Assembly: GCA_963762255.1 (NCBI GenBank)
Contig: CAVXKA010000003.1
Location: forward strand, 320,001-384,000
Direction: 5' to 3'
Length of the DNA stretch: 64,000 nucleotides
Source of the DNA: Candidatus Eiseniibacteriota bacterium
Lineage (GTDB): Bacteria; Eisenbacteria; RBG-16-71-46; JABDJR01
The position numbers and the translations under genes were made by a program. Below, in pieces: positions 13,228 to 43,138 of this stretch. Positions within the stretch are counted from its first letter, which is position 1. Every line of letters begins with the position of its first letter. The notes below the pieces were generated by a model that worked only from the letters and a program-made list of their open reading frames with translations, was not told where the DNA came from and made no database searches.

Positions 13228-13231
<4 letters not shown>

Positions 13232-20336: not shown

Positions 20337-20855
20337 TCAGTCGCGAGGGTACGTCTCCTTGTAGTGGAGATAGTTCTCGACCCCGAAGAGGATGAGGTCT
20401 CTCACCTCGTCATCGGTGACTCGCCGGGCCACTCGGCCGGGCCGACCCATGACGAGGCTGCGCGGAGGCACCCGCGTACCCGGAGTGACCAGAGAGCCCG
20501 CGCCCACGATCGACTCTTCGCCGATGACCGCGCCGTCCATGATCGTCGAGCCCATCCCGATCAGAACGCGGTCCTTCACCGTGCAACCGTGCAGCAGGAT
20601 GTTGTGCCCCCCCACGACGTCGTTGCCGATGATCGTCGGCCACGTGTCGATGGAGACGTGGATCGTCGAATTGTCCTGGATGTTGGTGCGATCACCGATG
20701 CGAATGAAGTTCACGTCGCCGCGCACCACGACATTGAACCAGAGGCTGGCGTGCTCTCCGAGAACCGTGTCGCCGATCACGGTGGCGGTGGGAGCCAGAT
20801 ACGCGGATGCGGGAATGACGGGGGTCTTGCCGTGGTGCGGGAGAATGAGCGGCAT
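20337..20855 (-). CDS. gamma-class carbonic anhydrase family (YrdA-like hexapeptide repeat protein)
   Basis: VVRGDVNFIRIGDRTNIQDNSTIH, GHNILLHGC. Confidence 0.9.
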   Translation of the reverse strand: MPLILPHHGKTPVIPASAYLAPTATVIGDTVLGEHASLWFNVVVRGDVNFIRIGDRTNIQDNSTIHVSIDTWPTIIGNDVVGGHNILLHGCTVKDRVLIGMGSTIMDGAVIGEESIVGAGSLVTPGTRVPPRSLVMGRPGRVARRVTDDEVRDLILFGVENYLHYKETYPRD

Positions 20856-20878
20856 CGGTCGCTCCGTGCGAGAGGAGA

Positions 20879-20955
20879 TGGTGGGCCCAGAGGGACTCGA
20901 ACCCCCAACCTTTTGGTCCGTAGCCAAACGCTCTATCCAATTGAGCTATGGGCCC
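20879..20955 (-). tRNA. tRNA-Arg(ACG)
   Basis: GGGCCCATAGCTCAATTGGATAGAGCG TTTGG CT ACG GA CCAAA...GGTTCGAGTCC...CCCACCA, 77 nt. Confidence 0.95.
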
Positions 20956-21081: not shown

Positions 21082-22158
21082 TTAGGAAGCCGGGCTTCTC
21101 GGCGGGTGCCGCTCGACGAGGCGCCCTTCGAGATCCGGCGTCATGGAGACATGCCCCGCGTCATCCACCAGCACCGCACCAACACCGAGGCTTTCCGCGA
21201 GCGCCAGACCGCGCTTAGCTCCGAGCACCATGATCGCCGTGGAGAGCGCATCGGCCAAGGTCGCGTCGGGAGAGACGGTGGTCACGCTGCGCAGTCCCTT
21301 CGAGGGCATCCCGGTCCTGGGATCCAGAATGTGGTGATAGCGCACGCCGTCCAGAACGAAGTAGCGCTCATAGTCGCCGCTGGTGGAGGTGGAGGCGTCG
21401 GTGACGTCGAGCGTGGCGAAGTAATCCTCCGGCTCCCCACGCGGGTCGCGAATGCCGACGCGCCAGGGCTTCCCGTCCTTGTGCCCCCCCGCCATCACCT
21501 GGCCGCCGCCGAGAATGAGAAAGTCTCGCACGCCGCGCGCACGCAAGAGCTCTGCGGCGCGATCGAGCGCGTAGCCCTTGGCGATCCCACCGAGGCCAAT
21601 CTTCATGCCCGCCACCGGGAGATAGACCGTGCCCAGGGAGTCGCTCACCACGACCTTGCGGTAGTCGACAAGCGCGATGCGGGCGGCCACGTCTGCGGGA
21701 TCGGGCCCGCGCGGCTCGGCCGCCTTGAAGTCCCACAGTCCCCAGAGCGCCGCCCACGAGATCTCGAACGCACCGTCGCTGAGCGCACCGATCTCGATCC
21801 CGCGCCGGATCACATCGCGAAGATCCGCCGGCACCGCCACCGGGCGCACGCCAGCCTCGCGGTTCACCGCAGAGAGGGGCGATGTGTCCTTCCACTCGCT
21901 CATCCGGGTGTCCACCTGCCGGAAGACGGCGAACACGGAATCAGCGAGCGCGGCGGCGGCGTCCCCTTCCGGCAAGGTCACTCGAAACGTGGTGGCCATG
22001 ACGTCGGCGGAGAAGGTCGTGAACCCGGAGGGCGCTGCTGCCTCCCGCGTGCGCGGCCACTTGGGAGCGATGAGCCGTCCTGGAGAGGTCAAGAAGAGAA
22101 CGAGGGCGGTCACCGCGCTGAACGCGAGAACCAGACCCAACGAGGCGGATCGTTTCAC
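21082..22158 (-). CDS. apbE: FAD:protein FMN transferase ApbE
   Basis: GGIAKGYALD, W.VGIRDP, STSGDYERY, HHILDPRTG, ADALST; end of the rnf operon. Confidence 0.92.
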   Translation of the reverse strand: MKRSASLGLVLAFSAVTALVLFLTSPGRLIAPKWPRTREAAAPSGFTTFSADVMATTFRVTLPEGDAAAALADSVFAVFRQVDTRMSEWKDTSPLSAVNREAGVRPVAVPADLRDVIRRGIEIGALSDGAFEISWAALWGLWDFKAAEPRGPDPADVAARIALVDYRKVVVSDSLGTVYLPVAGMKIGLGGIAKGYALDRAAELLRARGVRDFLILGGGQVMAGGHKDGKPWRVGIRDPRGEPEDYFATLDVTDASTSTSGDYERYFVLDGVRYHHILDPRTGMPSKGLRSVTTVSPDATLADALSTAIMVLGAKRGLALAESLGVGAVLVDDAGHVSMTPDLEGRLVERHPPRSPAS

Positions 22159-22173
22159 GAGCGCCTGGGCTCC

Positions 22174-22345
22174 CTAGTGATGGTGGGAGTGTGCGTGGTG
22201 GGAATCATGGTGGTGGGTGCAGCGCCCGCACTTGCCCTCCACCCCGGGCTGGCCGGGATCGTGCTTGCCTACCCACCGCTGCACAACGACCCAGGCACCG
22301 CACAGAGCACCCCAGACCGAGTATGGGGAGGAGGAAATGAAGCAT
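22174..22345 (-). CDS. cryptic 56-aa membrane protein with CxxC and His-rich tail (+1 frameshift at 22310-22313)
   Basis: Removing one G from a G4 run gives MLHFLLPILGLGALCGAWVVVQRWVGKHDPGQPGVEGKCGRCTHHHDSHHAHSHHH*; GGGAG RBS; fills the rnfA-apbE gap. Confidence 0.7.
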
Positions 22346-22348
22346 GCT

Positions 22349-22927
22349 CTAACTCCCGCTGAAGAGGCCGGCGAAGCCCATGAAGGCCAGGGAGAGGATT
22401 CCCGAGATGAGGAGCACCATCGCCGTCCCTTTGAGCAGGGAGGGGATGTTGGACAACTCGGCCTCCTCGCGGATTCCCGCCATCAACACCAGCGCCAGGG
22501 CGAGCCCCGCGCCGCTGCCGATGGCGAAGACCAAACCCTCGATCAGATTGTACTCCCGGCTGGTCTGGAAGAGCGCCAGCGCCAGGATCGCGCAGTTGGT
22601 GGTGATGAGCGGCAGATAGATGCCGAGCGCGCGGAAGAGTCCGGGCGAGAGCTTCTTGATCACCATCTCCACGAACTGCACGGTGCTCGCGATGACCACG
22701 ATAAAGCTGATGAGGCGCAGGTACGAGGCGTCCCCGAGAATGTACTTGTTGAGCCCCCACACCGCAATCGAAGTGATGATCATCACGAAGATGTTGGCGA
22801 GGCCGAGGCGGAACGCGGTCTGCAGGTTGTTAGACACGCCGAAGAACGCGCACAGCCCCAGGAAGTACACCAGCGTGAAGTTGTTGATGAGGAGCGAACT
22901 CATGAGGATCCAGACGAGTCTGTCCAT
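22349..22927 (-). CDS. rnfA: Rnf complex subunit A
   Basis: INNFTLVYFLGLC, LGIYLPLITTNCAIL, MAGIRE. Confidence 0.93.
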   Translation of the reverse strand: MDRLVWILMSSLLINNFTLVYFLGLCAFFGVSNNLQTAFRLGLANIFVMIITSIAVWGLNKYILGDASYLRLISFIVVIASTVQFVEMVIKKLSPGLFRALGIYLPLITTNCAILALALFQTSREYNLIEGLVFAIGSGAGLALALVLMAGIREEAELSNIPSLLKGTAMVLLISGILSLAFMGFAGLFSGS

Positions 22928-22930
22928 GCT

Positions 22931-23578
22931 CTAGATCGCCTCCTGAGTCAGCTTTGCCGCCAGCTTCTGACGGCGTTCGATGATCGCCGAGATCGCATAG
23001 AGCAGAACACCGAGGCAGAGGAACCCGCCGGGAGGAAGGATCATGATGATCCATGGTTCGTAATTGGGCCCGAACAGGTTGACCCCGAAGATGGAACCAC
23101 TCCCGAGAATCTCCCGGATCGCCCCAAGGATGAGCAGGGCACCGGTGAACCCGATCCCGTTCCCCACCGCGTCGCCGGTGGATGGCAAGACCGGGTTATG
23201 GGCGGCGAAGGCCTCGGCGCGGCCCAGAATGATGCAGTTCACCACGATGAGGGCGATGAAGGCGGCCATCGACTTGTGGGCGGCGGGAGCGATCGCCTGC
23301 AGCGTGAAGTCCACCACCGTCACGAAGGTGGCGATGATGATGATGTAGGTCGAGATGCGCACCTGTCGGGGGATGAACCGGCGCAACGCCGAGATCATGT
23401 AGCTCGAACAGACAAGCACGAAGGTCGTAGCCACCCCCATGATGACCCCGTTGAGGGCGGTGTTGGTTACGGCAAGGGCGGGGCACATGCCGAGGATCTG
23501 GCGAAACGTGGGGTTCTCCGGCCCAATCCCCTTGATCATCTCGCTGTTGAAGGTCAGCTTCTTTCCCTGGGCGGACAT
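22931..23578 (-). CDS. rnfE: Rnf complex subunit E
   Basis: ENPTFRQILGMCPALAVT, LIVVNCIILGRAEAFA, ILPPGGF. Confidence 0.93.
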   Translation of the reverse strand: MSAQGKKLTFNSEMIKGIGPENPTFRQILGMCPALAVTNTALNGVIMGVATTFVLVCSSYMISALRRFIPRQVRISTYIIIIATFVTVVDFTLQAIAPAAHKSMAAFIALIVVNCIILGRAEAFAAHNPVLPSTGDAVGNGIGFTGALLILGAIREILGSGSIFGVNLFGPNYEPWIIMILPPGGFLCLGVLLYAISAIIERRQKLAAKLTQEAI

Positions 23579-23580
23579 GT

Positions 23581-24228
23581 TCAATCCCCTCCTGCCGAGG
23601 CGCTCTCCGCGCCGGCGAGCGGTGGTTCCTGCCCGGGCGCGGGAAGCCGGCCGAGCCATTCCGCGTTGCCGGCGTTGATGATCTTCACGATCGCCTTCGA
23701 GGAGATCGTTGCGCCGGTGATGGCGTCCACCTCGTTCGGGTTCGTCCCGTGCCCCTTGATGGCCACAACGTCCGGCGTCACGGCGAGATCGTGGAACTCC
23801 GCGAGGAACTTCTCGTCCTTGAGAATCTTGTCGCCGAGGCCCGGCGTCTCCCGGCTGTCCAGAACCTGCATTCCCACGATCTTCCTATCGCTGGTCTTGA
23901 AGCCGTAGATGAGCTGAATCGTGTCCTGGAAGCCCGGCCCTTCGCTGGGAATCGCATAGCCCACGAAGACCCCGGTCGAATCGTAGGCGGCGTAGATGAC
24001 CTTCTCTCCCTTGGCCGGTGCCTCGACCGAGATGAGCTTGGAGTCACGGAAGACCAGGGGCTGGAGCTTCGAGGAGCCGGGCAGCACGTTGAAGACCGCC
24101 AGCTCGAGGGCCGCCTGTTTGTTGGCGGTGATCTTGGGAAGGGTAATCAGATAGGAGCCGACGATGGCGAGGCCGGAGATCAGACCGGCGAAGGTGAGGG
24201 TGGCGACGAGTTTCCACATGCCGCTCAT
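23581..24228 (-). CDS. rnfG: Rnf complex subunit G
   Basis: N-terminal TM, ETPGLG, FMN attachment motif DAITGATISS. Confidence 0.92.
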   Translation of the reverse strand: MSGMWKLVATLTFAGLISGLAIVGSYLITLPKITANKQAALELAVFNVLPGSSKLQPLVFRDSKLISVEAPAKGEKVIYAAYDSTGVFVGYAIPSEGPGFQDTIQLIYGFKTSDRKIVGMQVLDSRETPGLGDKILKDEKFLAEFHDLAVTPDVVAIKGHGTNPNEVDAITGATISSKAIVKIINAGNAEWLGRLPAPGQEPPLAGAESASAGGD

Positions 24229-25235
24229 GCCGTGCGCCTCCCGTGCCCGAAGGCCCGCGATTGGTTCGAGCGCTCGATGAGCGGCGACACCGCGTTCATG
24301 ATGAGGATGGCGTACATGACTCCTTCGGGGAGACCGCCCCACAATCGGATCAACACGACGAGGACTCCGATCCCCATGCCGAAGAGCCACGCCCCGCGCG
24401 GCGCGATCGGCGAGGTGACCGGGTCGGTGGCCATGAACACCGCCCCGAACATGAGCCCGCCGGAGAAAAGCATGAAGAGGGCGCTCGGATACCGCTCGGC
24501 GTTCACCAGATGCATGATGCCGCTGAAGATGCCCACGGTGAGGATGATCGAGGCCGGGATGCGCCAGTCGAAGGTGCGCCGCATGACGAGGACCACGCCG
24601 GCAAGAAGGATCACCGCCGCGCTCGTCTCCCCCAGGGATCCTGCCACGTTTCCACGGAAGAGATCCATGGCGGGCGCGAACTGGTGCGCGAACTTCATGA
24701 AATTGAGCGGCGTCGCCGTGGTCACCACGTCGGGAGGCGCCTGAAAGAACGGCACCGCGAAGTTGCTGGCATGAATCGACGCGAGCCCGGTGGGCGGCGA
24801 CCACGTGGTGATGGCGGTCGGGAAGGCCGCCTGCAAAAAGGCCCGCCCCACGAGAGCCGGGTTGAACAGGTTGTGCCCGAGCCCTCCCCAGATCACCTTG
24901 CCGAGCGAGATGGCGATGATCCCGCCCAGGAACGCCATCCAAAGCGGGAAGCCCGGAGGGAGGGTGAGCCCGAGCAGGATGCCCGTCAGGATCGCGCTGC
25001 CATCCTTGAGGGTGCGGGAGCGAGGTTTCGTATTCGAAGCCATCCACTCGGTGGCCATCGTGCCCAGGGCCGCGCTCACGGTCACCAGGAGCGAGCTGAT
25101 CCCGAAGTACCAGATGGACACCAGCCACACCACACAGGCGGCGAGGATGACGTCCAGCATGAGCCGCGGCGTCGTCACCCCTTCGCGCAGGAACGGCGCG
25201 GTCTGGACAAGGAGCCGCGGAGAGCGATCGGTCAC
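24225..25235 (-). CDS. rnfD: Rnf complex subunit D
   Basis: GGLGHNLFNPALVGR, FMN motif DVVTTATPL, GSLGETS, FMATDPVTSP; GTG start. Confidence 0.92.
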   Translation of the reverse strand: MTDRSPRLLVQTAPFLREGVTTPRLMLDVILAACVVWLVSIWYFGISSLLVTVSAALGTMATEWMASNTKPRSRTLKDGSAILTGILLGLTLPPGFPLWMAFLGGIIAISLGKVIWGGLGHNLFNPALVGRAFLQAAFPTAITTWSPPTGLASIHASNFAVPFFQAPPDVVTTATPLNFMKFAHQFAPAMDLFRGNVAGSLGETSAAVILLAGVVLVMRRTFDWRIPASIILTVGIFSGIMHLVNAERYPSALFMLFSGGLMFGAVFMATDPVTSPIAPRGAWLFGMGIGVLVVLIRLWGGLPEGVMYAILIMNAVSPLIERSNQSRAFGHGRRTA

Positions 25236-26569
25236 GTCGTCTTCCCCTTCTTCTTCTCCCGGATCGCCGACTTCGCCACCCGGATGAGCTGCACGATCGG
25301 GATGCCCGAGGGGCAGGCGAAGCTGCACGAACCGCATTCCACGCAATCCATGACGTGGAAGTCCGGCAGGTCGTCGAATCGCCGCGCCCGCGCGAGCCGG
25401 CCGAGGCGGGACGGGTTCAGGAACTGCGGGCACGCATCCACGCAGCGGCCGCAGCGGATGCAGGTGTACTCGTTGGGGATCGCGGCCTCGGCCTCCGTGA
25501 AGGCGAGGAGACCCGAGGTGCCCTTGAGCACCGGCACGTCCAGGCTGGCAAGCGGCGCCCCCATCATCGGGCCGCCCATGATGACCTCGCGGGTGTTCTC
25601 GTCGAGACCCCCGAGATGATCGAACACGGCCCGCACCGGCGTCCCCACCGGGACCAGGAGGTTGGCCGGCCGCTTCACTCCGGGGCCGGCGACGGTGACC
25701 ACGCGCTCGATGAGCGGGATCCCGTTGTCGAAGTAGTCGGCGATGGCCGCCATGGTGCCGACGTTGTTGACGACGATCTCGACGTCGATCGGGAGCTTGC
25801 CCGTCGGAACCTCGACGCCGAACACCGCCCGAATGAGCATCTTCTCCGCGCCCTGCGGGTACTTCACCTTGACCGGCACCACGCGCACCGCCGCGCCCGC
25901 CGGCACCGCACGTTGCAGCGATTCCACCGCGTCCGGCTTGTTCATCTCGATGCCAATCACGGTCTCGTCCACGCCGAGCCGCGCCGCCACGATTTCGATG
26001 CCGCGGAGGATCGCTTCCGGCCGCTCGATCATCACGCGATGGTCGGTGGTGAGATAGGGCTCGCACTCCGCGCCATTCACCAGGAGCCGGCGGATCTTCT
26101 TCCCCTCCGGCACCTTGTACTTGACGTGGGTCGGGAAGGCCGCGCCGCCCATGCCCACGAGTCCGGCGCGCTGGATGTGCGAGATGAACTCGTCGGCGGT
26201 GAGGCCCCGCCAGTCGATGGGAGGATGATGGGGCAGGCGCTGGGTAGCGAAGGGATCGGCCTCGATCTCGATCGCCTCGACCAGCTTGCTGTTGGGATGG
26301 TGCCGAGCCGCGATCGCCACCACCCGCCCGGTCACCGGACTGTGAAGCGTGGTGGAGACGAATCCCCCCGGCTCCGCAATCATCTGCCCGCGCATCACAC
26401 GCTCCCCCGCCCGCACCACGGGGCGGCAGGGCGCGCCGGTGTGCTGGCTCAACGGCAGCACATAGCGCTCCACGAACGGCATCCGCTCGATGGCGAGATC
26501 CTTGGTCTCTTCCTTGTGGCCGTCGGGATGCACCCCGTGGCGGAAGGTCTTGCCGAGAATGCTGGTCAC
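25232..26569 (-). CDS. rnfC: Rnf complex subunit C
   Basis: QHTGAP, GMGGAAFPTH, NGAECEPYLT, KYPQGAEK, GGPMMG, two 4Fe-4S motifs. Confidence 0.95.
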   Translation of the reverse strand: MTSILGKTFRHGVHPDGHKEETKDLAIERMPFVERYVLPLSQHTGAPCRPVVRAGERVMRGQMIAEPGGFVSTTLHSPVTGRVVAIAARHHPNSKLVEAIEIEADPFATQRLPHHPPIDWRGLTADEFISHIQRAGLVGMGGAAFPTHVKYKVPEGKKIRRLLVNGAECEPYLTTDHRVMIERPEAILRGIEIVAARLGVDETVIGIEMNKPDAVESLQRAVPAGAAVRVVPVKVKYPQGAEKMLIRAVFGVEVPTGKLPIDVEIVVNNVGTMAAIADYFDNGIPLIERVVTVAGPGVKRPANLLVPVGTPVRAVFDHLGGLDENTREVIMGGPMMGAPLASLDVPVLKGTSGLLAFTEAEAAIPNEYTCIRCGRCVDACPQFLNPSRLGRLARARRFDDLPDFHVMDCVECGSCSFACPSGIPIVQLIRVAKSAIREKKKGKTT

Positions 26570-26604
26570 GTTGAGTTCCTTATCGCGATCCGGGAGCGAG
26601 TCGC

Positions 26605-31122: not shown

Positions 31123-31966
31123 TGTGTCTCCCGGTCACTCCGACTTCTTCAACGGTCGAAAATTGGTCCCCGACGACCCACTGGATGGCTCCGGTGGGGC
31201 ATCGCAAGGTGGCCTTGACGCTGGCCGGCCCGCCCGCCGAATAGTCCACGACAGGCAGGTTGTTCGCCATTCGCACAAGACCGGGGGCTGCATCCTGAGC
31301 GCACCGCCCGCAGGCGTCGCAAACCACCTTGCAGACGCGGCGCGCTTCCTCGGCGGCGAGGGGCGCGGAGCACTGCACGATGAGGTGGTGACTCAGGGGA
31401 AGGATCTCGAAGAGATCGCGCGGGCAATCGTCCACGCAGTCGCCGCAGGCGGTGCACTTCGCGGTGTCCACCACCGGCAGCATCTCCGCGTTCATGTGGA
31501 TGGCGTCGAACGTGCATGAACGCTCGCAATCGCCATAGCCGAGACAGCCCCACGAGCACTCGAGCCCGCCGCCGCCCACGATGTGCGCGCCGCCGCAGTT
31601 CTCATAGCCCTCGTAGCTGGCCACCCGCAGCGCATGCCCGAGGCCCCCGGCGCAGTGGAGGCGGGCCACCCGCTTCTCGGCGGCGCCCGCATCCACTCCC
31701 AGGTAGTCCGCGATGAGCTCGATACGCTCGGCGTTCGATACCGTGCACTTGCTCGGCTTCGCTGCCCCGCTCACGATCTTCTCGGCCAGACCATGGCACC
31801 CCGGCTCCCCGCAGGCACCGCAGTTCGATCCGGGGAGCATCATCTCCACCTTCTCGATGCGCGGGTCCTCTTCCACCTGCAGGTACCGGTATGCAATGGC
31901 AAGCACGACCCCGAAGAAGAGGCCGAGCCCCCCCATGATCAGGCCGGCGGACAGGATGCTGTTCAA
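31115..31966 (-). CDS. rnfB: Rnf complex subunit B
   Basis: N-terminal TM, LPGSNCGACGEPGC, CSWGCLGYGDC..C, CTACGDCVDDCP. Confidence 0.92.
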   Translation of the reverse strand: MNSILSAGLIMGGLGLFFGVVLAIAYRYLQVEEDPRIEKVEMMLPGSNCGACGEPGCHGLAEKIVSGAAKPSKCTVSNAERIELIADYLGVDAGAAEKRVARLHCAGGLGHALRVASYEGYENCGGAHIVGGGGLECSWGCLGYGDCERSCTFDAIHMNAEMLPVVDTAKCTACGDCVDDCPRDLFEILPLSHHLIVQCSAPLAAEEARRVCKVVCDACGRCAQDAAPGLVRMANNLPVVDYSAGGPASVKATLRCPTGAIQWVVGDQFSTVEEVGVTGRHNA

Positions 31967-31999
31967 GGCGTGACTCCCTTTGCTGCTGCGTTCCGCGGC

Positions 32000-34900
32000 C
32001 TAGTTGAACGGCTCCGCCCGCTTCATCCACTTGGCGAGATCCGGCTCCTTCGAGTTGAGAGGAGCGCCGGGGTGGATGATGCGCGCCGAGCACCGCTCCG
32101 CCGCCATCACGAGCTGCTTGAAGGTGCCCGCTTTCGCGTCCTTGATGTACGCCTGCTTGTCCGCGTTGTAGGCGAACATCTTCGGATTCAGATTCGTGCA
32201 CTCGTTGCAGGTCGTGCAGAGCGCCGAGTCGATGTAGGGCTCCATCGCGCCCGCAACCTCCGCGGCGGCGACCGGCGCGGAGGCCGGGGCCGCGACGGAA
32301 GCGGCAGCGGACACCGGAGCCGCCGGAGCGGCCTGGGCCGCAACCGCACGGGCCGGCGCCGCCATGGTCGCAGCAGCCGGGATCCCGAGATCGCCTCCGT
32401 CCCCCTTCATCAGCCCTTCGGCAATGCGGCGCGCGATGAGCGCCGGGAAACGCTCCTTCAGGTCGGCGATCTGCGCCTCGTACTGCGCCTTGAGATCCGC
32501 GAGCTTCCGCTCGTACTCCTCCTCGAGCGGGCCCGCCACCTTGTAGCGCGCGGTCTCGGAGACCTTCACCCCGGCCAGCTCGAGCAGCTCGCCCCAGAAC
32601 GCCAGACGATCCTCGGCCAGGCTCACGATTTCCTCGGAAACCACGAGCCGGCTGAGCTTGCGCTTGCCGTCGACGACCATGATGTACGGGATCTTGCCCT
32701 GACGATCGGCGGGCGCCATCGCCACCAGCTCGTGGAACGGAACCATCGCGTCGCTCCACTTCGCGCGCGCAATCGGCTTGAAGTGCCGGCCGAAGCGCGG
32801 CTCGGTGGCGGCCCAGTCGGCCACGGTGAGCGGCAGCGACATCGTCTTCTCGCTCCCGTCCTCCTCGACGTAGGTCAGCTCGTAGGTCGGCCAGGTCTCT
32901 TCGAGGTCCGGGTTCCCGTCGAGGTTCAACCGCTCGGCCAGCGTCTCGCCGGCGTCGGGATCGTAGACCAGGTAGGGATACGCGCGGCTCTCGAGCGCCA
33001 GCTTGGCCGCGTGCGCGGAGCCGGAGTCGGGGAGCCCGTGCTCCGCCTGGCACGGCGTGTAGATGTTGAACAACGCCGGCCGCCGCGAGTTGAGCCCTCG
33101 CAACACCCCGCCGATCAAGTGCGCGGGAAGCGCCTGCGAGGTCTGCAGCACGTAGCTATTGCGGTGGGCCATGGCGATGAGCGCCATTTCCTTCCGCTGC
33201 TCCTCCTTGCCGTGACTCGCGGCCCCGTAGGCGGCCATGTCCGAGATCTGACCGTGGAACCCGCTGGTGCAGGCCTGTCCGCCGGTGTTGGAGTACACCT
33301 GGGTATCGAGCACGACCACACGGATCGGCTTGCCCGAGGCGAGGAGCCGGGACACGTTCTGGAACCCGATGTCGAGCATGGCGCCGTCGCCGCCCACCGC
33401 GAGCATGGGCGGGCAGAGCCGGAACTCGTCGTCGGAGAACTGCCGCCAGTCGAACGCCTCGAAGAACTTCCCGTGCTTGGCGGCGTCAAACGAGTCGGCG
33501 ATCTCGATCTCCGCCTTGCGCACCGACGCGAACGCATCGGACATCTTCCGCATGAGCCCCTCGAAGATGCCGATGGCGATCGAGGGCGCATCCTGGAAGA
33601 GGTGGTTGGTCCAGGGATAGGGATACGGGTTGTAGGGATAGGTGCTGCCCCACACCGAGGAGCACCCGGTCGAGTTGGCGATGCCGAGGGAGGCGCGCCC
33701 GCGGCCGCTGGGCCCGGTCGTGTACCGCCAGCGCAGGTCGCGGATGTCGCGGATCAGCGCGTGCAGGCGCCCCAGGCGCTCGCGCTCGGGTCCCTGCACG
33801 TGCATGTCCACGTGCACGGTGCCCGTCGCCGCCACCTCGTTGAGATCGGTGGTGGCGACCAGGATCTCGCTCACCTTCTTCTCGAGCTGCTTCTCGAGAG
33901 CCTCGAGCTTGGCCACGAAGCCGGCCACGCGCGGCTGCATGTGCGCCTCGATGGCCGACACCACGAGGTGCATGCCGGTCTTCTCGCCGCAGCCCATGCA
34001 GGAGCCGTCGCCACCCACCATGGAGTGGAAGTTCTTCTTCGTGAGAAGGAGCGTGTTGAGCACCCCGATCCCCTCGTCGATGTCGCTGATCTGGATGAAA
34101 CGCGCCGGCGTGTCGGGAAGCTTCTCCCAGACCGCCCAGTTCCGCTTGAGCTTGGCCACGGTGGCGTCATCCTGCTTGATCGTGACCAGGGCGTTGTCGG
34201 GACAGACCTCCACGCAGAGGTTGCACCCCTTGCAGGCGTAGGGATTGATGGTGACGGAGAGGAGACCTCCCGAGCCTTCCTTGCGCTTCTCGGGGCCGGT
34301 GAAGAACGGCACCGTCTTGGCCAGCGGGAACTCGCGGATGCGCCGCGCCAAGGCGTCGAACTCCTCGTCCAACGACTTGCGCTCGGCATCGGCGAGCTGG
34401 GCCTCCTTCACGACCTTCTCGTAGGCGCGGGTCAGCGTCGCGGCGAAGGTGGTGAACGTCGGCTCGTCCTTGAGGAGGCGGCGCGACTCGCGGGCCAGCC
34501 CGGGGAAGAGGGTTTTCATGGCCGCGCTCGGCACCGAGTCGGTCCCGGCGTACGCCGCGGCGCGGATCACGTCCTCGATCTCGCTCACGAGTCCGGGAAT
34601 GGCCGCGTCCGGGCACTGGGTCCAGCACTGCCCGCAGCCGGTGCACTTGTCGGCGACGAACTCGGGCACCTCGAAGCGGATGCCGGTCATGTCGCGGAAG
34701 ATGCCGCTGGCGGCCGGGATCGCCGAGATCGCGGAGAACGGATCCGCGATGGGGTCATCGCCGGTGCCGTAGAGCGCGCAGACCTGACCCATGAAGCGAT
34801 ACGGGTCTGCGATCCCCTCGGCGGTGTCGGTGTCGCGCAGATACCATGGAGCCTCGAGGTCGGCCCTCGCCTTGTCCTCGCCGGCGTTCTCGCCGAGGCT

Positions 34901-37009: not shown

Positions 37010-37067
37010 ACTTCGCTCCTTGACGGTGCCCGGCCGACGTTGACGGCGGCCGGAGCGGCAACTGACA

Positions 37068-39359: not shown

Positions 39360-39376
39360 CGAAATCCCCCCGCCGA

Positions 39377-40330
39377 TCAAACGGCGAAGCGGTCCAGTTC
39401 CTTGCTGATCGCGACGAGTTTCTCGTCCGGGCTCATGTCCATGCCCTGGGCGGTGTACTCGTCGTAGCGCGGCGCGTCCGGGTTCCAATAGAAGAGCCCG
39501 ATCGCCATCCGCTCGCCGGGAGTCGCCAGCTCACGCGCGGCGTTGATGTTCGAAGGATCGTGAGAGAGTTGGTTCTTGTACATCCGGGCGACCGCGTTGT
39601 CCACCTGAATACCCTTTTCATGCGTCAGCAGGAGCATGAGATCCGGGTTGCGCTGAAGCTCCTGCCACACACCGGTGGTGTATTGCGGGCAACGTTGCAG
39701 GATATGGACGAAGCTCAGCCCCTTGTGCTCGTGCGCCGCCTTGAGCGTCGCGTAGAGATGAGGCGGATTCCAGTCCACCGTGCGGGCCACGAACGAGGCG
39801 TTGGTGAGCCCCAGCGTCGACTGGATGATGTTGATGGGGGGGAGCCATGCCCCCCTCGGGTGGGTGTTGGTCTTGAGCCCGATCGGGGTGGTGGGCGACG
39901 TCTGCATCTTGGTGAGCCCGTAGATGCTGTTGTCGAACACCATCACCGTCATGTCCATGTTGTAGCGGATGGCATGGACCCAGTGCCCGGCACCTATCGA
40001 GCAGCAGTCGCCGTCCCCCGTGGCCACCCACACATGCAGGTCCGGCCGGCGCGCCTTCACGCCGCAGGCCACCGGCAGCGCGCGCCCGTGGAGGCTGTGG
40101 AACCCGTACGCGTGCATGTAGTGCGGGAACCGGCTCGAGCAGCCGATGCCCGAGATGGACGCGATCTTCTCCGGGGGGATCTGCTTGTCGCGGCAGATCT
40201 TCTGAACCGCGCTCAGGACGGAGTGATCCCCGCAGGAGGGGCACCACCGCGCCGTCCCTCCCTCGTAGCTCTCGAGGGTGAAGTACCGATCGGGAACCTC
40301 GAGAGACCAGTCGAGTTTCACATCGAACAT
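39377..40330 (-). CDS. 2-oxoacid:ferredoxin oxidoreductase beta subunit (KorB-like)
   Basis: WCPSCGD, SGIGCSSR, HGRALP, GDGDCCSIG, YGLTKMQTSPT. Confidence 0.92.
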   Translation of the reverse strand: MFDVKLDWSLEVPDRYFTLESYEGGTARWCPSCGDHSVLSAVQKICRDKQIPPEKIASISGIGCSSRFPHYMHAYGFHSLHGRALPVACGVKARRPDLHVWVATGDGDCCSIGAGHWVHAIRYNMDMTVMVFDNSIYGLTKMQTSPTTPIGLKTNTHPRGAWLPPINIIQSTLGLTNASFVARTVDWNPPHLYATLKAAHEHKGLSFVHILQRCPQYTTGVWQELQRNPDLMLLLTHEKGIQVDNAVARMYKNQLSHDPSNINAARELATPGERMAIGLFYWNPDAPRYDEYTAQGMDMSPDEKLVAISKELDRFAV

Positions 40331-42240
40331 GCCGCAGCTCCTTTGGTGGCGTCGAGCCGGTGCTTGAGTTCCTTGTAGATGCGTCCGGGAGGCAGCGGCG
40401 CACCGGGAATGATGGACCAGCAATCCACGTCCACGAGCGTGGCCTGACGCAGGATCTGAGCGAGCTGAGCCCGCCGCCGGTTCTCCGGCGTAACGAACGG
40501 GTCATCCGCACGGTCGCTGTAGTTGATCTCCACGGTCATCACCCGCTTGAAGCCGGCGAACATCTCGGTCAGGCCCGGTTCCAGCGGCGAGAGGAAGTGA
40601 AGGTGGGTCGAGGAGACCTTGTGGCCCTCGGCGCGCAGCCGGCTCACCGCCTCTTCGATGCTCCCCTTCGTCGACCCCCAGCCCACCACCAGCAGATCGC
40701 CGGTGGGATCGCCGTGCAGCGGCGGCGGCACCAGCGTGCTCTGCAACGCCGCCAGTTTTCGGCTGCGCATGTCGCAGCCTTTCTGGTTCGACGTCGGGTC
40801 GTAGGCGACCTTGCTCCAGCGCGTGTGCGCGAGGCCGGTGAGCGTGTACTCCCCGCCGCGCTGACCCGGGATGGGCCGGCGGGAAAGCCCCGTCTTCTCG
40901 TCCCAGTCGTAGGGCGCGACCCCTTCCTCCCAGTTGGATTGGTCGATGGGAAGGGCCAGCCATTCCATGCGCGGCTCCGGCCGCGGGAAGGGTTGGACTC
41001 CGGTGGCGAGGTTGGCGTCGGTCAGGACCAGCACCGGCGTGCGGAAGTCCTCGGCGAGCTTGCGCGCGAGGATCACGAAGTGGAAGCACTCGGCGATGGT
41101 GGCAGGCGCGATCACGACCTTGGGTGCATCGCCGGCCGCCGCAAAGAGTGCCGCCAGCAGATCTCCCTGCTCCACCTTGGTCGGCAGCCCCGTGCTGGGC
41201 CCGCCGCGCTGCACGTCCACGATCACCAGCGGCACCTCGCACATGGCGGCAAGCCCGATGAACTCGGTCTTGAGCGCGAGGCCGGGACCCGAAGTGATCG
41301 TGCAGGCGGTCTTGCCCGCGTAGCTCGATCCGATGGCGAAGCCGATCGCGGCGATCTCGTCCTCCGCCTGATGCAGGCAGCCGCCCACCTTGTGGTAGAC
41401 GCTGGCGACGTAATGGGAGGCCGAGGTCGCGGGGGTGATCGGGTACATGGCCAGGACTTCCATGCCGGCGGCCATCACGCCCATTCCCACCGCCTGGTTC
41501 CCGTTCATGACCACGAGCGGCTCGTCGTGGGGCCACGGCGGAACCTCGTAGGCCAGCCCAATGTTACGCGCCGCAAACTCGTAGCCCGCGCGAAGGAGGT
41601 TCTTGTTGAGATCGACAACCTCCTTGCTCTTGCGGTGGAAGATGTACTCGACCTCTTCGTAGGCCCGGGCCAGATCGCGGTCATAGATCTGGCAGAGCAT
41701 CCCGAGCACGAACATGTTCTTGCCCAGCTTCGGGTTCGAGGTGACCTCCATGCAGGCCTGCTCGATGGCGATCTCGTGGACGGTGAAGCCCCGATCCCGG
41801 AACTCCTTGACCGCGGTCGCGTACTGGGCGCGGATCTCGTCCAGGGGGTCTTCCGCCCACTTGTTTTCCAGCAAGATCACCGTGCTCTTCCCGAACGCGC
41901 CCTCGGCGATGCGCCCGTAGAGCACCTGCTCGTTGAACGCCACCACGAGGTCGGCCTCGTCACCCATGTTGGTGACGTAGCTCGAGCCCAGGCGCACGCG
42001 GATGCCGCTCGCGCCCGCGGGCGAGCGCGCCGGCGGCTTGATCTCCGCCGGAATGATTTCCACCGTCCACACGCCGTTGCCCATCTTTGCGCAGACCGTG
42101 CCGAAGACCTGGCCCGCCTTCTGGGCGCCTTCTCCCGAGTCGCTCACGATCTCGACGATGTGCTCGTCGATCCGCTTGCGCGACGTGCCGGTCGGCGTCT
42201 GGCCTTTCGCCGTGGCTGTCTTCGCTTCATCCGGAGTCAT
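40318..42240 (-). CDS. 2-oxoacid:ferredoxin oxidoreductase alpha subunit with fused gamma domain (KorA-like)
   Basis: DSGEGAQ, YPITPATS, QAEDEIAA, TSGPG, QRGGPSTGLPTK. Confidence 0.92.
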   Translation of the reverse strand: MTPDEAKTATAKGQTPTGTSRKRIDEHIVEIVSDSGEGAQKAGQVFGTVCAKMGNGVWTVEIIPAEIKPPARSPAGASGIRVRLGSSYVTNMGDEADLVVAFNEQVLYGRIAEGAFGKSTVILLENKWAEDPLDEIRAQYATAVKEFRDRGFTVHEIAIEQACMEVTSNPKLGKNMFVLGMLCQIYDRDLARAYEEVEYIFHRKSKEVVDLNKNLLRAGYEFAARNIGLAYEVPPWPHDEPLVVMNGNQAVGMGVMAAGMEVLAMYPITPATSASHYVASVYHKVGGCLHQAEDEIAAIGFAIGSSYAGKTACTITSGPGLALKTEFIGLAAMCEVPLVIVDVQRGGPSTGLPTKVEQGDLLAALFAAAGDAPKVVIAPATIAECFHFVILARKLAEDFRTPVLVLTDANLATGVQPFPRPEPRMEWLALPIDQSNWEEGVAPYDWDEKTGLSRRPIPGQRGGEYTLTGLAHTRWSKVAYDPTSNQKGCDMRSRKLAALQSTLVPPPLHGDPTGDLLVVGWGSTKGSIEEAVSRLRAEGHKVSSTHLHFLSPLEPGLTEMFAGFKRVMTVEINYSDRADDPFVTPENRRRAQLAQILRQATLVDVDCWSIIPGAPLPPGRIYKELKHRLDATKGAAACSM

Positions 42241-42339
42241 GAATTTCCCCTGTCGTTTGAGTCCATTCGATCGAATCGGCCCGGCGAAGAGGCGGGGACC
42301 GGTGCCGCGCCACAGACCCGCGCGGGATGGGTAGTACCG

Positions 42340-42780
42340 TTAGCTGCTTTCCCCCAGGTCGGTGTACATGGCATCGCCCAGGAGCGCAGTCTCCCGCGAT
42401 TCGTGCAGGCGCAATGCCTCGGAAAAAGTCGTCACATCGCGCAGGACAGCGGCCAGCGGTCCGTCCACGCACTGGCGGGCCCTCTCGGTCACGCCATCGA
42501 TGGCGGTCAGAAGTCTCTGATGATCGTCGAAAAGGCGCTGCATATAGGTCAGGAGATGGGGCGCGGAGTCCCCCACCACCTGATGGAGTCCAGCCGGACC
42601 TTCCTCGTGGGCGAAGTGGAGTTCGAGTCGGGCGCGCAACTCGTTCAGCATGGGGATCAGAATCTTGAGATCGCTCGTGCACTCGAGGCGGTCAAGGGTC
42701 TCCTTGAGCGCCTTGTGCTCCTGCTGGATCGACTGTCCACCCCCCGATCCCGATTCAAGACCGGTTTTGTGCGCTTTCAT
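42340..42780 (-). CDS. hemerythrin (HHE) domain protein
   Basis: EHKAL, HFAHEE, DDHQRL, HESRE ligand pattern; GAGGGAG RBS. Confidence 0.75.
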   Translation of the reverse strand: MKAHKTGLESGSGGGQSIQQEHKALKETLDRLECTSDLKILIPMLNELRARLELHFAHEEGPAGLHQVVGDSAPHLLTYMQRLFDDHQRLLTAIDGVTERARQCVDGPLAAVLRDVTTFSEALRLHESRETALLGDAMYTDLGESS

Positions 42781-43138
42781 AACTCCCTCATCACCTTGGC
42801 GTTTGGCCGCCACAAGGCGGGGCCCGCCCCACGACTTGGGGACGAGTCTATCCGAATTCCGACAGATACTTGCACAGTTCGCCATACCCTCACCAATTCG
42901 TTTTCGCGAAGCGGCTGTTCTAGATAGCGTAAGGATGTAAAGCCGACCAAATTTGTAGGCAATGATCCAGTCGCCCCCTCTGGGTCGGATCCCCCACGTT
43001 CGATTTCGAGGTCGGCCTGCGCGCCGCACCACGGCTGGACCGGTCCAATCCTGGTAGAATTGTGGTCACCAACGAGATGGGATCGCAGGCAGCCCGCGCG
43101 GCTCGCCTGCCCGGCGGACATCACAGGGAGTGCACAGC

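Follow-up and report, generated by a model that had tools for sequence, protein, structure and literature searches.

A candidate OFOR–Rnf module with PFOR-derived pseudoenzymes and a tethered ferredoxin in a Candidatus Eiseniibacteriota genome

The window (the whole stretch of DNA analysed, 64,000 nucleotides) carries a single block of co-oriented genes on the minus strand, in the order hemerythrin–korA–korB–PFOR remnant–intact PFOR–rnfB–pseudo-PFOR–rnfCDGEA–small Cys-rich ORF–apbE, with intergenic gaps of −13 to 99 nt from hemerythrin to rnfC. The block thus includes a complete Rnf with ApbE. All genes named in the preliminary description of this DNA were found again, on the same strand and with the sizes given there, as was its observation that rnfB is parted from rnfC by a degenerate PFOR whose start it overlaps; the overlap of the rnfB stop with that start is 8 nt. 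The features are shown in Table 1.

Table 1. Positions in the window, strand and supporting evidence of the features of the block and of the next downstream gene.
Feature	Position	Strand	Evidence
Hemerythrin-like protein, 146 aa, heads the block	42340..42780	−	PF01814, E 3.3e-7, 31.3 bits (cut-off 25.3)
korA, fused gamma+alpha subunit of a two-subunit 2-oxoacid:ferredoxin oxidoreductase	40318..42240	−	POR, POR_N and PFOR_II domains
korB, TPP-binding beta subunit	39377..40330	−	TPP_enzyme_C and PFO_beta_C domains
PFOR remnant, short form, 763 aa	37068..39359	−	Homology to the PFOR C-terminal half
Intact long-type PFOR, 1669 aa	32000..37009	−	Pfam domains and motif alignment
PFOR Ala/Pro-rich linker, ~residues 1536–1589	32243..32404	−	Sequence, model
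PFOR C-terminal single-cluster ferredoxin domain, ~residues 1590–1669, CxxCxxC...C	32003..32242	−	PF13370
rnfB, 283 aa, long multi-cluster type	31115..31966	−	PF04060 and Fer4 domains
Pseudo-PFOR, 1505 aa	26605..31122	−	Alignment to intact PFOR, motif loss
rnfC	25232..26569	−	TIGR01945, 529 bits (cut-off 246)
rnfD, start approximate	24225..25229	−	TIGR01946, 316 bits (cut-off 207)
rnfG, start approximate	23581..24228	−	FMN_bind; TIGR01947, 92.7 bits (below cut-off 102)
rnfE, true start maybe Met ~23578	22931..23659	−	TIGR01948, 224 bits (cut-off 213)
rnfA	22349..22927	−	PF02508; TIGR01943, 223.1 bits (cut-off 229.3)
Small Cys-rich ORF, contains HDPGQPGVEGKCGRC	22174..22345	−	Motif common to relatives
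apbE, FMN transferase flavinylating Rnf subunits	21082..22158	−	PF02424, 278 bits
Gamma carbonic anhydrase, next downstream, unit membership uncertain	20337..20927	−	NF050158, 188 bits (below cut-off 250)

KorA scored 500 bits against TIGR03710 (cut-off 483), and its closest solved structure is 6n2n_A, from the Magnetococcus OGOR (E 2e-78). KorB, the start of which was shifted to the Met at ORF residue 32, scored 233 bits against TIGR02177, below the cut-off of 262, and its gene overlaps the korA stop by 13 nt. The Pfam scan revealed no Fer4 domain in either subunit. RnfB reached 79.9 bits against TIGR01944 (cut-off 68.7), and RnfG carries a flavinylation-type motif, DAITGATIS. The small Cys-rich ORF matched no Pfam or NCBIfam family, and in the window no canonical start was found upstream of its predicted membrane helix.

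The intact PFOR scored 410 bits against TIGR02176, below the cut-off of 911, and retains every TPP and three-cluster motif in the motif alignment; all three catalytic motifs are present in 102 of 105 full-length intact long PFORs. It ends in a Fer4_13 domain (PF13370, residues 1593–1646) preceded by an Ala/Pro/Glu-rich stretch, the linker composition in the family being A 34%, P 16% and E 12%. When the C-terminal 600 aa were modelled, the linker of about 50 residues (model residues 467–518) remained below pLDDT 50 without secondary structure, and is predicted to be disordered, whereas the ferredoxin domain was modelled as folded (pLDDT 78–90). The preliminary description had reported no free ferredoxin gene and had proposed an oxidoreductase hard-wired to RnfB. 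There is indeed no separate gene, but the tethered domain had been overlooked, and hard-wiring without a ferredoxin is not supported in that form. At least 120 ferredoxin-tethered intact relatives were collected at ≥55% identity, from Gemmatimonadota, Acidobacteriota and Myxococcota among the matches listed, so the tether may not be peculiar to Rnf. The ferredoxin motif occurs in 118/120 intact long PFORs, 56/120 remnants and 0/73 pseudo-PFORs. In most relatives of the cluster the ferredoxin sits on the remnant; in the window it sits on the intact PFOR instead, and in the three short-remnant clusters inspected (window, L032 and L062) a ferredoxin-bearing PFOR adjoins.

The pseudo-PFOR and the intact PFOR align over 1495 columns with 29% identity (E 8e-179). 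Of the PFOR domains the former has I, II, V and VII, with two CxxCxxCxxxC motifs in V, and degenerate versions of III and VI. TPP or proximal-cluster motifs were found in none of the 73 family members. Both domain-V cluster motifs are kept in 65/73, and no domain-V cysteine motif is left in 6/73 and in locus L046, so that the pseudo-PFOR is no obligatory electron wire. The remnant, without any Pfam or NCBIfam match, corresponds to the C-terminal half of a PFOR, with degenerate domains V–VI–VII and a long helix; the window copy has no Fe-S motifs, TPP motifs or ferredoxin domain. BLASTP aligns it with PFOR residues 1149–1537 at 29% identity (E 1e-39), hhalign matches it to the C-terminal half of the pseudo-PFORs as a family (probability 100, E 1.4e-49, 652 columns), and its AF2 model (pLDDT 81) has Moorella PFOR 6cin as top fold match (E 3e-6). 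The 128 proteins of its family are all annotated as 'hypothetical' or 'ferredoxin'. Alignments and motif counts thus bear out the degenerate paralogues announced in the preliminary description as genuine PFOR homologues that have lost the catalytic cofactor motifs, and the motif loss shows that these two PFOR-derived proteins should be unable to bind TPP or a proximal cluster.

In a pseudo-PFOR alignment scan, the protein was found to be encoded in at least 356 species genomes, the carriers among the matches listed being mostly sulfur-oxidising Gammaproteobacteria, together with Eisenbacteria, Acidobacteriota and Planctomycetota. For neighbourhood analysis 65 loci were kept, from Gammaproteobacteria, Ca. 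Eisenbacteria, Acidobacteriota, Thermoanaerobaculia and Phycisphaerales. Over the testable loci, rnfB lies within 3.5 kb upstream of pseudo-PFOR in 52/56 and rnfC downstream in 43/55, while the remnant, korB and korA are found upstream in 38/47, 33/42 and 31/40, respectively. Neither a co-oriented remnant nor korAB was found upstream in 9/47 (Thiotrichaceae, Thiosymbion, Thiorhodococcus and others), and no rnfC follows in 7/55; parts can therefore be encoded apart. Pseudo-PFOR stays beside rnfB even with rnfCDGEA and korAB elsewhere. The conserved core is korAB, the remnant, rnfB, pseudo-PFOR and rnfCDGEA, with KorAB as the conserved catalytic partner. The intact PFOR is an accessory outside this core: apart from the window, just 3 of the 65 loci (L032, L062 and L061) have it inside the cluster. 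As the block layout is conserved across phyla, it is not due to chance, and the earlier guess that similar clusters exist is confirmed by the synteny search suggested with it, the core layout recurring in many bacteria.

Among the flanking genes, the small Cys-rich ORF motif also follows rnfA in L006, L043, L061 and L018, and apbE does so only in the window, L006 and L043. The gamma carbonic anhydrase is not conserved beside the cluster elsewhere, its single other match (L045) being on the opposite strand. In four further loci, beyond the 43 counted above (L017, L049, L052 and L054), rnfC comes after an inserted sucC–orf–sucD, which links the unit with the 2-oxoglutarate/succinyl-CoA step. In the Riftia symbiont, the available part of PMC11636981 gives consecutive locus tags for KorA(3), KorB(3) and a 'PFOR-like ferredoxin', and shows their expression declining jointly (logFC −2.62, −2.57 and −1.91); these proteins were equated with the cluster genes solely by their annotation and the order of their genes.

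Both degenerate copies are full-length open frames with orthologues 35–48% identical in several phyla. Values of dN/dS were 0.076–0.287 for pseudo-PFOR (11 pairs; 0.18 for the window against L001) and 0.070–0.182 for the remnant (5 pairs), and both evolve about 1.5–3 times faster than the Rnf subunits. The preliminary description had called for dN/dS on these copies and would have given up its proposal had they been lineage-specific and neutral; they are neither, being widespread over several phyla and under purifying selection (0.07–0.29).

The block is most naturally read as a functional OFOR–Rnf unit. We give an even chance to its being a dedicated OFOR–Rnf module in which the PFOR-derived pseudoenzymes are adaptors and the tethered ferredoxin is the carrier between KorAB/PFOR and RnfB, and we infer that the module proteins associate physically. 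Pseudo-PFOR, whose domain V usually retains two putative [4Fe-4S] sites, and remnant would form an adaptor or scaffold keeping KorAB beside RnfB and, in the window variant, the PFOR likewise. The tethered ferredoxin would swing from the OFOR clusters to RnfB and back, and its tether would keep low-potential electrons out of the free pool. The net reaction would be 2-oxoglutarate (or pyruvate) + CoA + NAD+ ↔ acyl-CoA + CO2 + NADH, coupled to the ion gradient. In this organism, which appears to be aerobic, we lean slightly towards oxidative, energy-conserving operation, gradient-driven reductive carboxylation falling just short of an even chance; in the sulfur-oxidising carriers the latter looks at least as likely.

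A looser arrangement is plausible, although we consider it rather unlikely: a functional operon without a stable supercomplex, in which the ferredoxin-bearing protein is reduced by KorAB or PFOR and diffuses to RnfB, pseudo-PFOR is a soluble two-cluster carrier or a regulator, and clustering serves co-expression only. Gene order does vary, parts are encoded apart in some genomes, intact PFORs with a tethered ferredoxin are widespread by themselves, and ordinary Rnf uses soluble ferredoxin according to the available parts of PMC12174285 and PMC13768988. Yet such an operon offers no reason for purifying selection on cofactor-poor proteins of 1500 and 800 aa in hundreds of species, or for the adjacency of pseudo-PFOR and rnfB in 52/56 loci, and the cluster-less pseudo-PFORs (6/73) cannot carry electrons. 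The version given in the preliminary description, an asymmetric hetero-oligomer of the PFOR with its two degenerate paralogues hard-wired to RnfB, which would amount to a half-active PFOR dimer with the PFOR as catalytic heart, is improbable. The three genes are adjacent in the window, their products have domain VII and the long C-terminal helix in common, and PFORs are obligate dimers (PMC13768988, available part), but one intact PFOR with two pseudo-partners proved to be a minority variant (window and 3/65 loci), so the pseudo-enzymes are not generally PFOR-dependent. Moreover, in the tree the clade with the short remnants (and three long forms) branches from within the long-form remnants that bear a ferredoxin, an arrangement pointing to a later recruitment of the PFOR.

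It is very improbable that pseudo-PFOR and remnant have acquired a role unrelated to Rnf electron transfer, such as sensing of 2-oxoacids or CoA esters, assembly or protection of oxygen-labile OFOR or RnfB clusters, or TPP-free chemistry. Domains I and II are the best conserved parts of pseudo-PFOR, judged by invariant columns, some pseudo-PFORs are cluster-less, and a hemerythrin lies beside the cluster in six places, namely the window, L006 and L043 (orthologues upstream of korA) and L049, L052 and L054 (a different one after rnfA), a recurrence that hints at an oxygen-related problem. Against such a role, the domain-V clusters are kept in 65/73, the CoA-binding domain III has no PF01558 match, and no catalytic or ligand-binding motif was identified in pseudo-PFOR or remnant, neither of which retains the TPP, proximal-cluster or YPITPS motif. 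That the degenerate copies are functionless, decaying pseudogene-like relics has hardly any chance of being right: all catalytic motifs are lost and the window pseudo-PFOR additionally lacks about 40 aa of domain I through a deletion, but the open frames, the conserved synteny, the orthologues over several phyla and the dN/dS values refute this reading.

The window RnfB matched the solved RnfB chains 9eri_B (E 4e-53) and 7zc6_B (E 4e-47), which we take to be from Acetobacterium woodii and Clostridium tetanomorphum, respectively. As in solved Rnf complexes, all six subunits are encoded, together with ApbE, and RnfB is of the long multi-cluster type; by analogy, the Rnf of the block should pass electrons reversibly between ferredoxin and NAD+ and couple this transfer to an ion gradient. 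In known Rnf operons the genes are contiguous and a free ferredoxin is used, whereas here the 1505-aa pseudo-PFOR stands between rnfB and rnfC, korAB and the remnant (in the window also the PFOR) precede rnfB, and the ferredoxin is a tethered domain. The RnfB of the 8ahx family, presumably Azotobacter vinelandii Rnf1, is of the short type and matches only residues 6–98 of the window RnfB. In the available text of PMC12174285 that Rnf1 works in reverse, supplying reduced ferredoxin to one dedicated client, with an extra cytoplasmic subunit, and it is a precedent in these respects. Its client is nitrogenase, reached via soluble carriers, and it has no OFOR-derived subunits. The same portion of this Rnf/Nqr review mentions pyruvate for Clostridium fermentation, and no oxoglutarate link, additional gene or supercomplex.

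The intact PFOR resembles the homodimeric enzymes of Moorella (6cin) and Desulfovibrio africanus (1b0p) in domain order I-II-III-(IV)-V-VI, TPP motif and twelve cluster cysteines. It is about 500 residues longer, with an insertion of ~125 aa within ferredoxin domain V, inserts before VI, a C-terminal helix, the Ala/Pro linker and the ferredoxin. A 2026 PFOR review (PMC13768988) mentions no ferredoxin-fused or pseudo PFOR in its available part. Unlike in those homodimeric enzymes, two of the block's paralogues are catalytically lost.

The Magnetococcus marinus OGOR (6n2n), which works with free ferredoxin, is the closest solved relative of KorA (residues 27–578) and has the same alpha(gamma-fused)/beta make-up without a ferredoxin domain; in contrast to it, the block's korAB is embedded among Rnf and PFOR-derived genes. 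In 2-oxoacid dehydrogenase complexes, swinging-arm carrier domains are borne on flexible Ala/Pro-rich linkers, and the modelled ferredoxin is likewise a small carrier domain, which its Ala/Pro-rich linker might allow to reach several active sites. Unlike the lipoyl arm, the carrier here is a [4Fe-4S] ferredoxin, and its movement is our proposal. An OFOR–Rnf layout with inactive PFOR copies appears to be undescribed, no published description having been found; the available part of PMC6315080 places dimeric korAB 'elsewhere in the genome' and describes no OFOR–Rnf cluster of the window type. The rTCA clusters of tubeworm symbionts and Thioflavicoccus mobilis reported there, with korABCD interleaved with flxABCD-hdrABC, plus pntAB and rnf, differ in their four-subunit KorABCD, their Hdr-Flx bifurcation partner and the lack of pseudo-PFORs (PMC6315080, same part). 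They resemble the block in that the genes of an OFOR alternate with those of a complex that supplies electrons, an arrangement suggestive of direct delivery of electrons.

The window had a G+C content of 62–70%, which gives rise to many spurious open reading frames, and genes were selected by high third-position G+C together with family scans. All cluster genes formed one co-oriented block on the minus strand, comprising three paralogues of pyruvate:ferredoxin oxidoreductase (PFOR), designated the intact long PFOR, the pseudo-PFOR and the remnant, together with genes for the two-subunit 2-oxoacid enzyme KorAB and for Rnf, the ferredoxin:NAD+ ion pump. The gene order and sizes of the preliminary description were reproduced by the ORF calls and family scans. 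Intergenic gaps from the hemerythrin gene to rnfC ranged from −13 to 99 nt, and rnfB overlapped the start of the pseudo-PFOR gene by 8 nt. The NCBIfam hemerythrin models scored far under their cut-offs for the hemerythrin-like protein. Between positions 23500 and 43400, one promoter-like site (1.0 expected) and eight terminator-like sites (8.7 expected) were detected; these counts are close to expectation and uninformative on transcription units.

Coordinates of the cluster genes and neighbouring features in the window and in homologous loci from other genomes (L numbers).
Feature	Sequence	Positions	Strand	Remarks
hemerythrin	window	42340-42780	minus	PF01814, 31.3 bits (gathering score 25.3)
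korA	window	40318-42240	minus	TIGR03710, 500 bits vs 483
korB	window	39377-40330	minus	TIGR02177, 233 bits, under cut-off 262
remnant, 763 aa	window	37068-39359	minus	no family match
intact long PFOR, 1669 aa	window	32000-37009	minus	
rnfB	window	31115-31966	minus	TIGR01944, 79.9 bits vs 68.7
pseudo-PFOR, 1505 aa	window	26605-31122	minus	
rnfC, D, G, E, A	window	22349-26569	minus	
small Cys-rich ORF	window	22174-22345	minus	after rnfA
apbE	window	21082-22158	minus	
gamma carbonic anhydrase	window		minus	downstream of apbE
respiratory genes	window	1492-13306	minus	
secreted protein, 1090 aa	window	43130-46402	plus	divergent from the cluster
molybdoenzyme	window	51594-56957	plus	
small ORF homologue	L006	18921-19100		
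small ORF homologue	L043	18589-18786		
small ORF homologue	L061	about 17630		
small ORF homologue	L018	about 19067		
sucC, 128-aa ORF, sucD	L017	14420-16872		between pseudo-PFOR and rnfC
NuoF-like gene	L017	1897-3144		just upstream of korA
IS200-like and IS1595-like transposases	L033	2375-2803, 19485-20423		
HicAB pair	L015	19414-20087		after rnfA
PD-(D/E)XK transposase	L024	14681-15541		between pseudo-PFOR and rnfC
CarboxypepD_reg-repeat protein, 1390 aa, and two small Fer4_13-like pieces	L061	4642-8814		between intact PFOR and rnfB

The small ORF, which follows rnfA also in other loci, encodes a membrane helix and a Cys-rich segment (...DPxxPGVExxCGxCG) and matched no family in Pfam or NCBIfam. 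In the window its first canonical start gives 36 aa lacking the helix, and the frame is open further upstream; as a guess, the product might be a maturation factor. The secreted protein carries a C-terminal FlgD-Ig/Por_Secre_tail sorting domain, in keeping with the FCB-group/Eisenbacteria-like affiliation to which the nearest loci point. The molybdoenzyme belongs to the xanthine-dehydrogenase/CO-dehydrogenase family (FAD subunit and fused [2Fe-2S]-hammerhead-MoCo protein), and is preceded by a thiolase and followed by an FdrA-like acyl-CoA synthetase (NF004760, 434 bits vs 433).

All six Rnf subunit genes were present, each with its Pfam domain, in an operon interrupted by the pseudo-PFOR gene between rnfB and rnfC. 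Scores against the TIGR families were 529 for RnfC (cut-off 246), 316 for RnfD (207) and 224 for RnfE (213), and just under the cut-offs for RnfA (223.1 vs 229.3) and RnfG (92.7 vs 102). RnfB belonged to the long type with multiple clusters that occurs in ferredoxin-dependent Rnf, with solved RnfB chains matching at E values of 4e-53 and 4e-47; short-type RnfB matches its N-terminal part only. Covalent-FMN sites in RnfG and RnfD usually have an SGAT-type motif. RnfG carries DAITGATIS, and the gene of the flavin transferase ApbE is present; RnfD carries DVVTTATPL in place of such a motif.

Motifs were assigned by aligning the paralogues with those canonical PFORs that appeared among the search matches. 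The intact long PFOR and its orthologue P0077 retained the TPP motif GGDG...YSNTGGQ, YPITPS of domain I, eight domain-V cysteines and four proximal-cluster cysteines, corresponding to three [4Fe-4S] clusters; C789...C799, C926...C936, C1004, C1007, C1116 and C1320 of the window's protein aligned with the canonical PFOR cysteines. Of the 105 full-length intact long PFORs among the search matches, 102 kept all three catalytic motifs. With 410 bits against TIGR02176, under the equivalog cut-off of 911, the protein represents, on sequence criteria, a divergent long subfamily, named in the sources just "2-oxoacid:acceptor oxidoreductase family protein". This subfamily (protein rows P0210-P0328) is large and uncharacterised; its proteins of about 1680 aa have a domain-V insertion and carry their ferredoxin behind an Ala/Pro linker. 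The matches listed included 120 members with at least 55% identity, from Gemmatimonadota, Acidobacteriota, Thermoanaerobaculia and Myxococcota.

The alignment of the pseudo-PFOR with the intact PFOR spanned 1495 columns, with an identity of 29% (E 8e-179). TPP and proximal-cluster motifs were found in none of the 73 pseudo-PFORs among the search matches, and in the window's protein E970, S973, A1100 and S1292 replace the four proximal-cluster cysteines. The two domain-V CxxCxxCxxxC motifs were both present in 65 of these 73 proteins, the window's included (C753-C763 and C892-C902); two had a single motif and six had none. Judged by these motifs, the pseudo-PFOR is a PFOR homologue and not an enzyme of the PFOR family. 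The window's copy lacks about 40 domain-I residues (near residues 50-55) kept by most members of the family; the pseudo-PFOR of locus L001, 77% identical, aligns to it gap-free, so that this deletion is common to both. The remnant aligned with residues 1149-1537 of the intact PFOR (29% identity, E 1e-39), had no cofactor motif and no match in Pfam or NCBIfam, and in the alignment to PFOR lacked the GDG/NTGGQ segment. In a family-to-family comparison with hhalign, nearly the full length of the remnant matched the C-terminal half of the pseudo-PFORs, a stretch that starts shortly ahead of domain V and reaches the C-terminus (probability 100, E 1.4e-49, 652 columns), with both Fe-S motifs falling in alignment gaps. 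Its AlphaFold model (pLDDT 81, pTM 0.76) had the Moorella PFOR (6cin, E 3e-6) and OFOR (2-oxoacid:ferredoxin oxidoreductase) beta subunits as best fold matches. As far as alignments and the predicted fold indicate, the remnant keeps just the fold and the homology to PFOR. The names "remnant" and "degenerate PFOR" used previously are accurate in the light of the motif losses, the hhalign match and the fold match.

The cluster had been described as containing no free ferredoxin gene, which overlooked a Fer4_13 domain that terminates the intact PFOR (residues 1593-1646), preceded by a long helix and then a stretch rich in Ala and Pro. Long remnants of about 850 aa carry a Fer4_13-type domain after a similar linker, and short remnants of about 755 aa, the window's copy included, lack it. 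Within the last 100 residues, a CxxCxxC...C motif was present in nearly all intact long PFORs (118 of 120), in 56 of the 120 remnants and in none of the 73 pseudo-PFORs; the 42 residues ahead of it consisted of 32–34% A, 16–20% P and 12–15% E. In the three short-remnant clusters inspected (the window and the acidobacteriotal L032 and L062) a ferredoxin-bearing PFOR directly followed the remnant. In the match tables, the longest contig has the same length for several other short remnants and an intact long PFOR each, which suggests the same arrangement there. The model of the last 600 residues of the intact PFOR, poor overall (mean pLDDT 64, pTM 0.41) and used only for the contrast between linker disorder and folded ferredoxin, comprised a 50-residue helix, a 52-residue unstructured segment (pLDDT <50) and a folded domain (pLDDT 78–90). 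The domain patterns of remnants and PFORs thus point to one flexibly tethered ferredoxin domain per cluster inspected in full. KorA (alpha with fused gamma) and KorB (TPP-binding beta) have no delta subunit and no ferredoxin domain of their own in Pfam; the nearest solved relative of KorA is the two-subunit Magnetococcus OGOR 6n2n (6n2n_A, E 2e-78).

Synteny was assessed by tblastn of the window proteins against the 65 loci, and counts refer to loci with enough flanking DNA. Relative to the pseudo-PFOR gene, rnfB was located within 3.5 kb upstream in 52 of 56 testable loci, the remnant upstream in 38 of 47, korB in 33 of 42 and korA in 31 of 40, and rnfC was downstream in 43 of 55, after an insertion in four more and inverted in one. 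These counts define a conserved core of korAB, remnant, rnfB, pseudo-PFOR and rnfCDGEA. Across the window and the 65 loci, an intact long PFOR between remnant and rnfB was found only in the window, in L032 and L062, and partly in L061; Eisenbacteria L006 and L043 have the hemerythrin, apbE and small ORF as in the window, without the intact PFOR. Gene order thus marks the window as a variant of the core with an added, putatively catalytic PFOR. In Thiotrichaceae, Thiomargarita, Achromatium, Thiosymbion and Thiorhodococcus, rnfB-pseudo-PFOR or the pseudo-PFOR alone stands apart from korAB, remnant or rnfCDGEA. In the culturable Thiorhodococcus mannitoliphagus DSM 18266 (L037), the rnfB-pseudo-PFOR-rnf portion is present. 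In four of the 65 loci, all gammaproteobacterial (L017, L049, L052 and L054), pseudo-PFOR and rnfC are separated by sucC and sucD with a conserved 128-aa ORF between the two that matches no Pfam family; this insertion ties the unit to the 2-oxoglutarate/succinyl-CoA/succinate segment and gives indirect support to the predicted specificity of KorAB for 2-oxoglutarate. A hemerythrin recurs beside the cluster, upstream of korA (window, L006, L043) or after rnfA (L049, L052, L054), which hints at oxygen sensing or Fe-S enzyme protection.

Five loci, all gammaproteobacterial (L017, L034, L035, L047 and L049), carry just upstream of korA a gene for a NuoF-like protein of 415 aa (Complex1_51K, SLBB, NADH_4Fe-4S), possibly another NADH-linked partner. 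In some loci, such as L033 (Thiodiazotropha), L015 and L024 (Thiosymbion), the cluster is flanked or broken up by mobile or selfish elements, and identity across phyla is high (RnfA 65–79%, KorA 65–71%); together these features suggest that the cluster moves horizontally. The insertion in L061 belongs to an unclassified MAG.

The pseudo-PFOR family comprised about 75 cluster representatives of about 1500–1550 aa with 37–48% identity, from sources including Thiorhodococcus, Ca. Thiodiazotropha, Planctomycetota and Acidobacteria; Ca. Eisenbacteria (48% identity) were the closest named relatives among the matches listed. A scan of one genome per species recovered at least 356 pseudo-PFOR relatives, from which the 65 loci were kept, including Chromatiaceae, Sedimenticola, Thiodiazotropha, Thiosymbion, Thiomargarita, Thioploca, Achromatium and Woeseiaceae as well as Ca. 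Eisenbacteria, Acidobacteriota, Thermoanaerobaculia and Phycisphaerales. The remnant family gave 128 matches, labelled "hypothetical protein" or "ferredoxin", and its clusters in the protein atlas were all "hypothetical protein".

Pairwise Nei-Gojobori dN/dS values between close loci were 0.076–0.287 for the pseudo-PFOR (11 pairs), 0.070–0.182 for the remnant (5 pairs), 0.046–0.121 for korA and korB, and mostly 0.02–0.19 for the Rnf subunits, with one rnfE value of 0.43; between the window and L001 they were 0.18 (pseudo-PFOR), 0.05 (rnfB) and 0.09 (rnfC). The remnant pair L015-L042 (dN/dS 1.37, dN 2.66) was dropped as an artefact of the L042 remnant being split into two frames. These ratios indicate that pseudo-PFOR and remnant are under purifying selection, somewhat relaxed relative to Rnf. 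Lineage-specific copies evolving neutrally, the outcome against which the preliminary description had set its proposal, do not agree with relatives in several phyla and dN/dS of 0.070–0.287. For some cluster genes the tblastn match is broken into two neighbouring pieces that differ in frame (rnfE and rnfA in L021; pseudo-PFOR in L022, L032 and L042; rnfC and rnfD in L050; remnant in L042), probably from MAG assembly errors rather than decay.

A maximum-likelihood tree, computed quickly from 59 rows and 336 columns of the domain VI-VII region shared by the proteins and with SH-aLRT as its sole support measure (row P0069 left out for its short extracted segment), placed all long-type proteins in one clade against the canonical PFORs (100). 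Beside the intact long PFORs, the pseudo-PFORs (99) and the remnants (100) formed sister groups (97); the branches leading to both are long (0.91 and 0.92), and this sister relation could be due to long-branch attraction. Every short remnant fell inside one 14-row clade (96), and the basal remnants were long forms. The derivation of the long remnant from a window-like arrangement by deletion of the PFOR body is not favoured, as the basal remnant lineages are long forms. The tree is consistent with both pseudo-families having arisen early from a long PFOR with a tethered ferredoxin, and with an intact PFOR having been recruited later in the lineage of the window.

The comparative evidence supports well a dedicated OFOR-Rnf unit with PFOR-derived pseudoenzymes. 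The earlier proposal, a complex of PFOR and its paralogues on Rnf, is supported in part; the centre of the unit would be KorAB with the tethered ferredoxin, and not a PFOR trimer. Domain VII and the long C-terminal helix are kept in all three paralogues. Pseudo-PFOR and remnant may form a catalytically dead PFOR-like frame that would set KorAB, and in the window also PFOR, beside RnfB, and the tethered ferredoxin would shuttle electrons among KorAB, PFOR and RnfB, with the pair of pseudo-PFOR clusters assisting in most lineages. Pseudo-PFORs without any cluster motif (the six of 73 and that of locus L046) argue that scaffold, and not wire, is the universal role. A complex prediction from alignments for RnfB 38-283 and pseudo-PFOR 692-1436, with guessed domains and without controls, scored 0.00 against a mark of 0.32, a value that speaks neither for binding nor against it. 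It is conceivable, if doubtful, that the core constitutes one membrane machine, an ion-translocating 2-oxoglutarate:NAD+ oxidoreductase built on a former PFOR dimer, now a catalytically dead docking frame, with a swinging ferredoxin carrying every electron. If so, it would add an ion-pumping step to the TCA cycle when run forward, and be a carboxylase powered by the membrane potential in reverse, allowing (micro)aerobic autotrophs and symbionts to fix CO2 by OFORs with no need for reduced ferredoxin, which is oxygen-sensitive, to circulate as a free pool.

In the organism of the window, electron flow in the oxidative direction is only slightly more likely than in the reductive one. Further genes of the window specify cytochrome oxidase, complex I subunits and a module resembling alternative complex III, and family scans of its 64 kb detected no citrate-cleaving enzyme; this fits an aerobic heterotroph oxidising 2-oxoacids with an extra ion-pumping step. 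Among the respiratory genes are those for an SCO1-like protein, for subunits I and IV of cytochrome oxidase and for the alternative-complex-III-like pair, an NrfD-type membrane protein and a Fe-S/molybdopterin-like subunit of 1029 aa, indicating that the host of these oxygen-sensitive OFORs respires oxygen. On the other hand, most carriers are sulfur-oxidising autotrophs, which points to gradient-driven synthesis of 2-oxoglutarate, as does expression in the Riftia symbiont, whose genes were equated with the cluster by name and order only. In the symbiont, KorA(3), KorB(3) and a "PFOR-like ferredoxin" have consecutive locus tags and logFC of −2.62, −2.57 and −1.91 under sulfide limitation; nirB and glnL drop alongside, and rTCA genes rise (PMC11636981).

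The supply and disposal of very low-potential electrons for OFORs in organisms living with oxygen is an open problem, relevant both to aerobic carbon fixation of the rTCA type and to how sulfur-oxidising symbionts run their central metabolism; for the Riftia symbiont, "RNF" and "OGOR/PFOR isoforms" are counted with the complexes whose function or direction is unknown (PMC11636981). The conserved KorAB-Rnf operon offers a concrete, testable answer, and a possible function for two "hypothetical protein" families of about 1500 and about 850 aa. It would add a new case of pseudoenzymes taken up as components into a respiratory complex, and it draws attention to an uncharacterised PFOR subfamily, large and equipped with its own ferredoxin arm, in Gemmatimonadota, Acidobacteriota and relatives.

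A full-text literature search, with subscription journals mostly outside its scope, returned no description of the cluster, the pseudo-PFOR or a ferredoxin-tethered PFOR, and the accessible portions of a PFOR review (PMC13768988) and an Rnf/Nqr review (PMC12174285) made no mention of such forms. As far as the available excerpts go, Rnf, Kor and PFOR are just listed as present in PMC6593406 and PMC4914600, and Rnf and Hdr-Flx lie within rTCA clusters, with korAB placed elsewhere, in PMC6315080. The OFOR-Rnf unit is a new variant among the known Rnf and OFOR systems.
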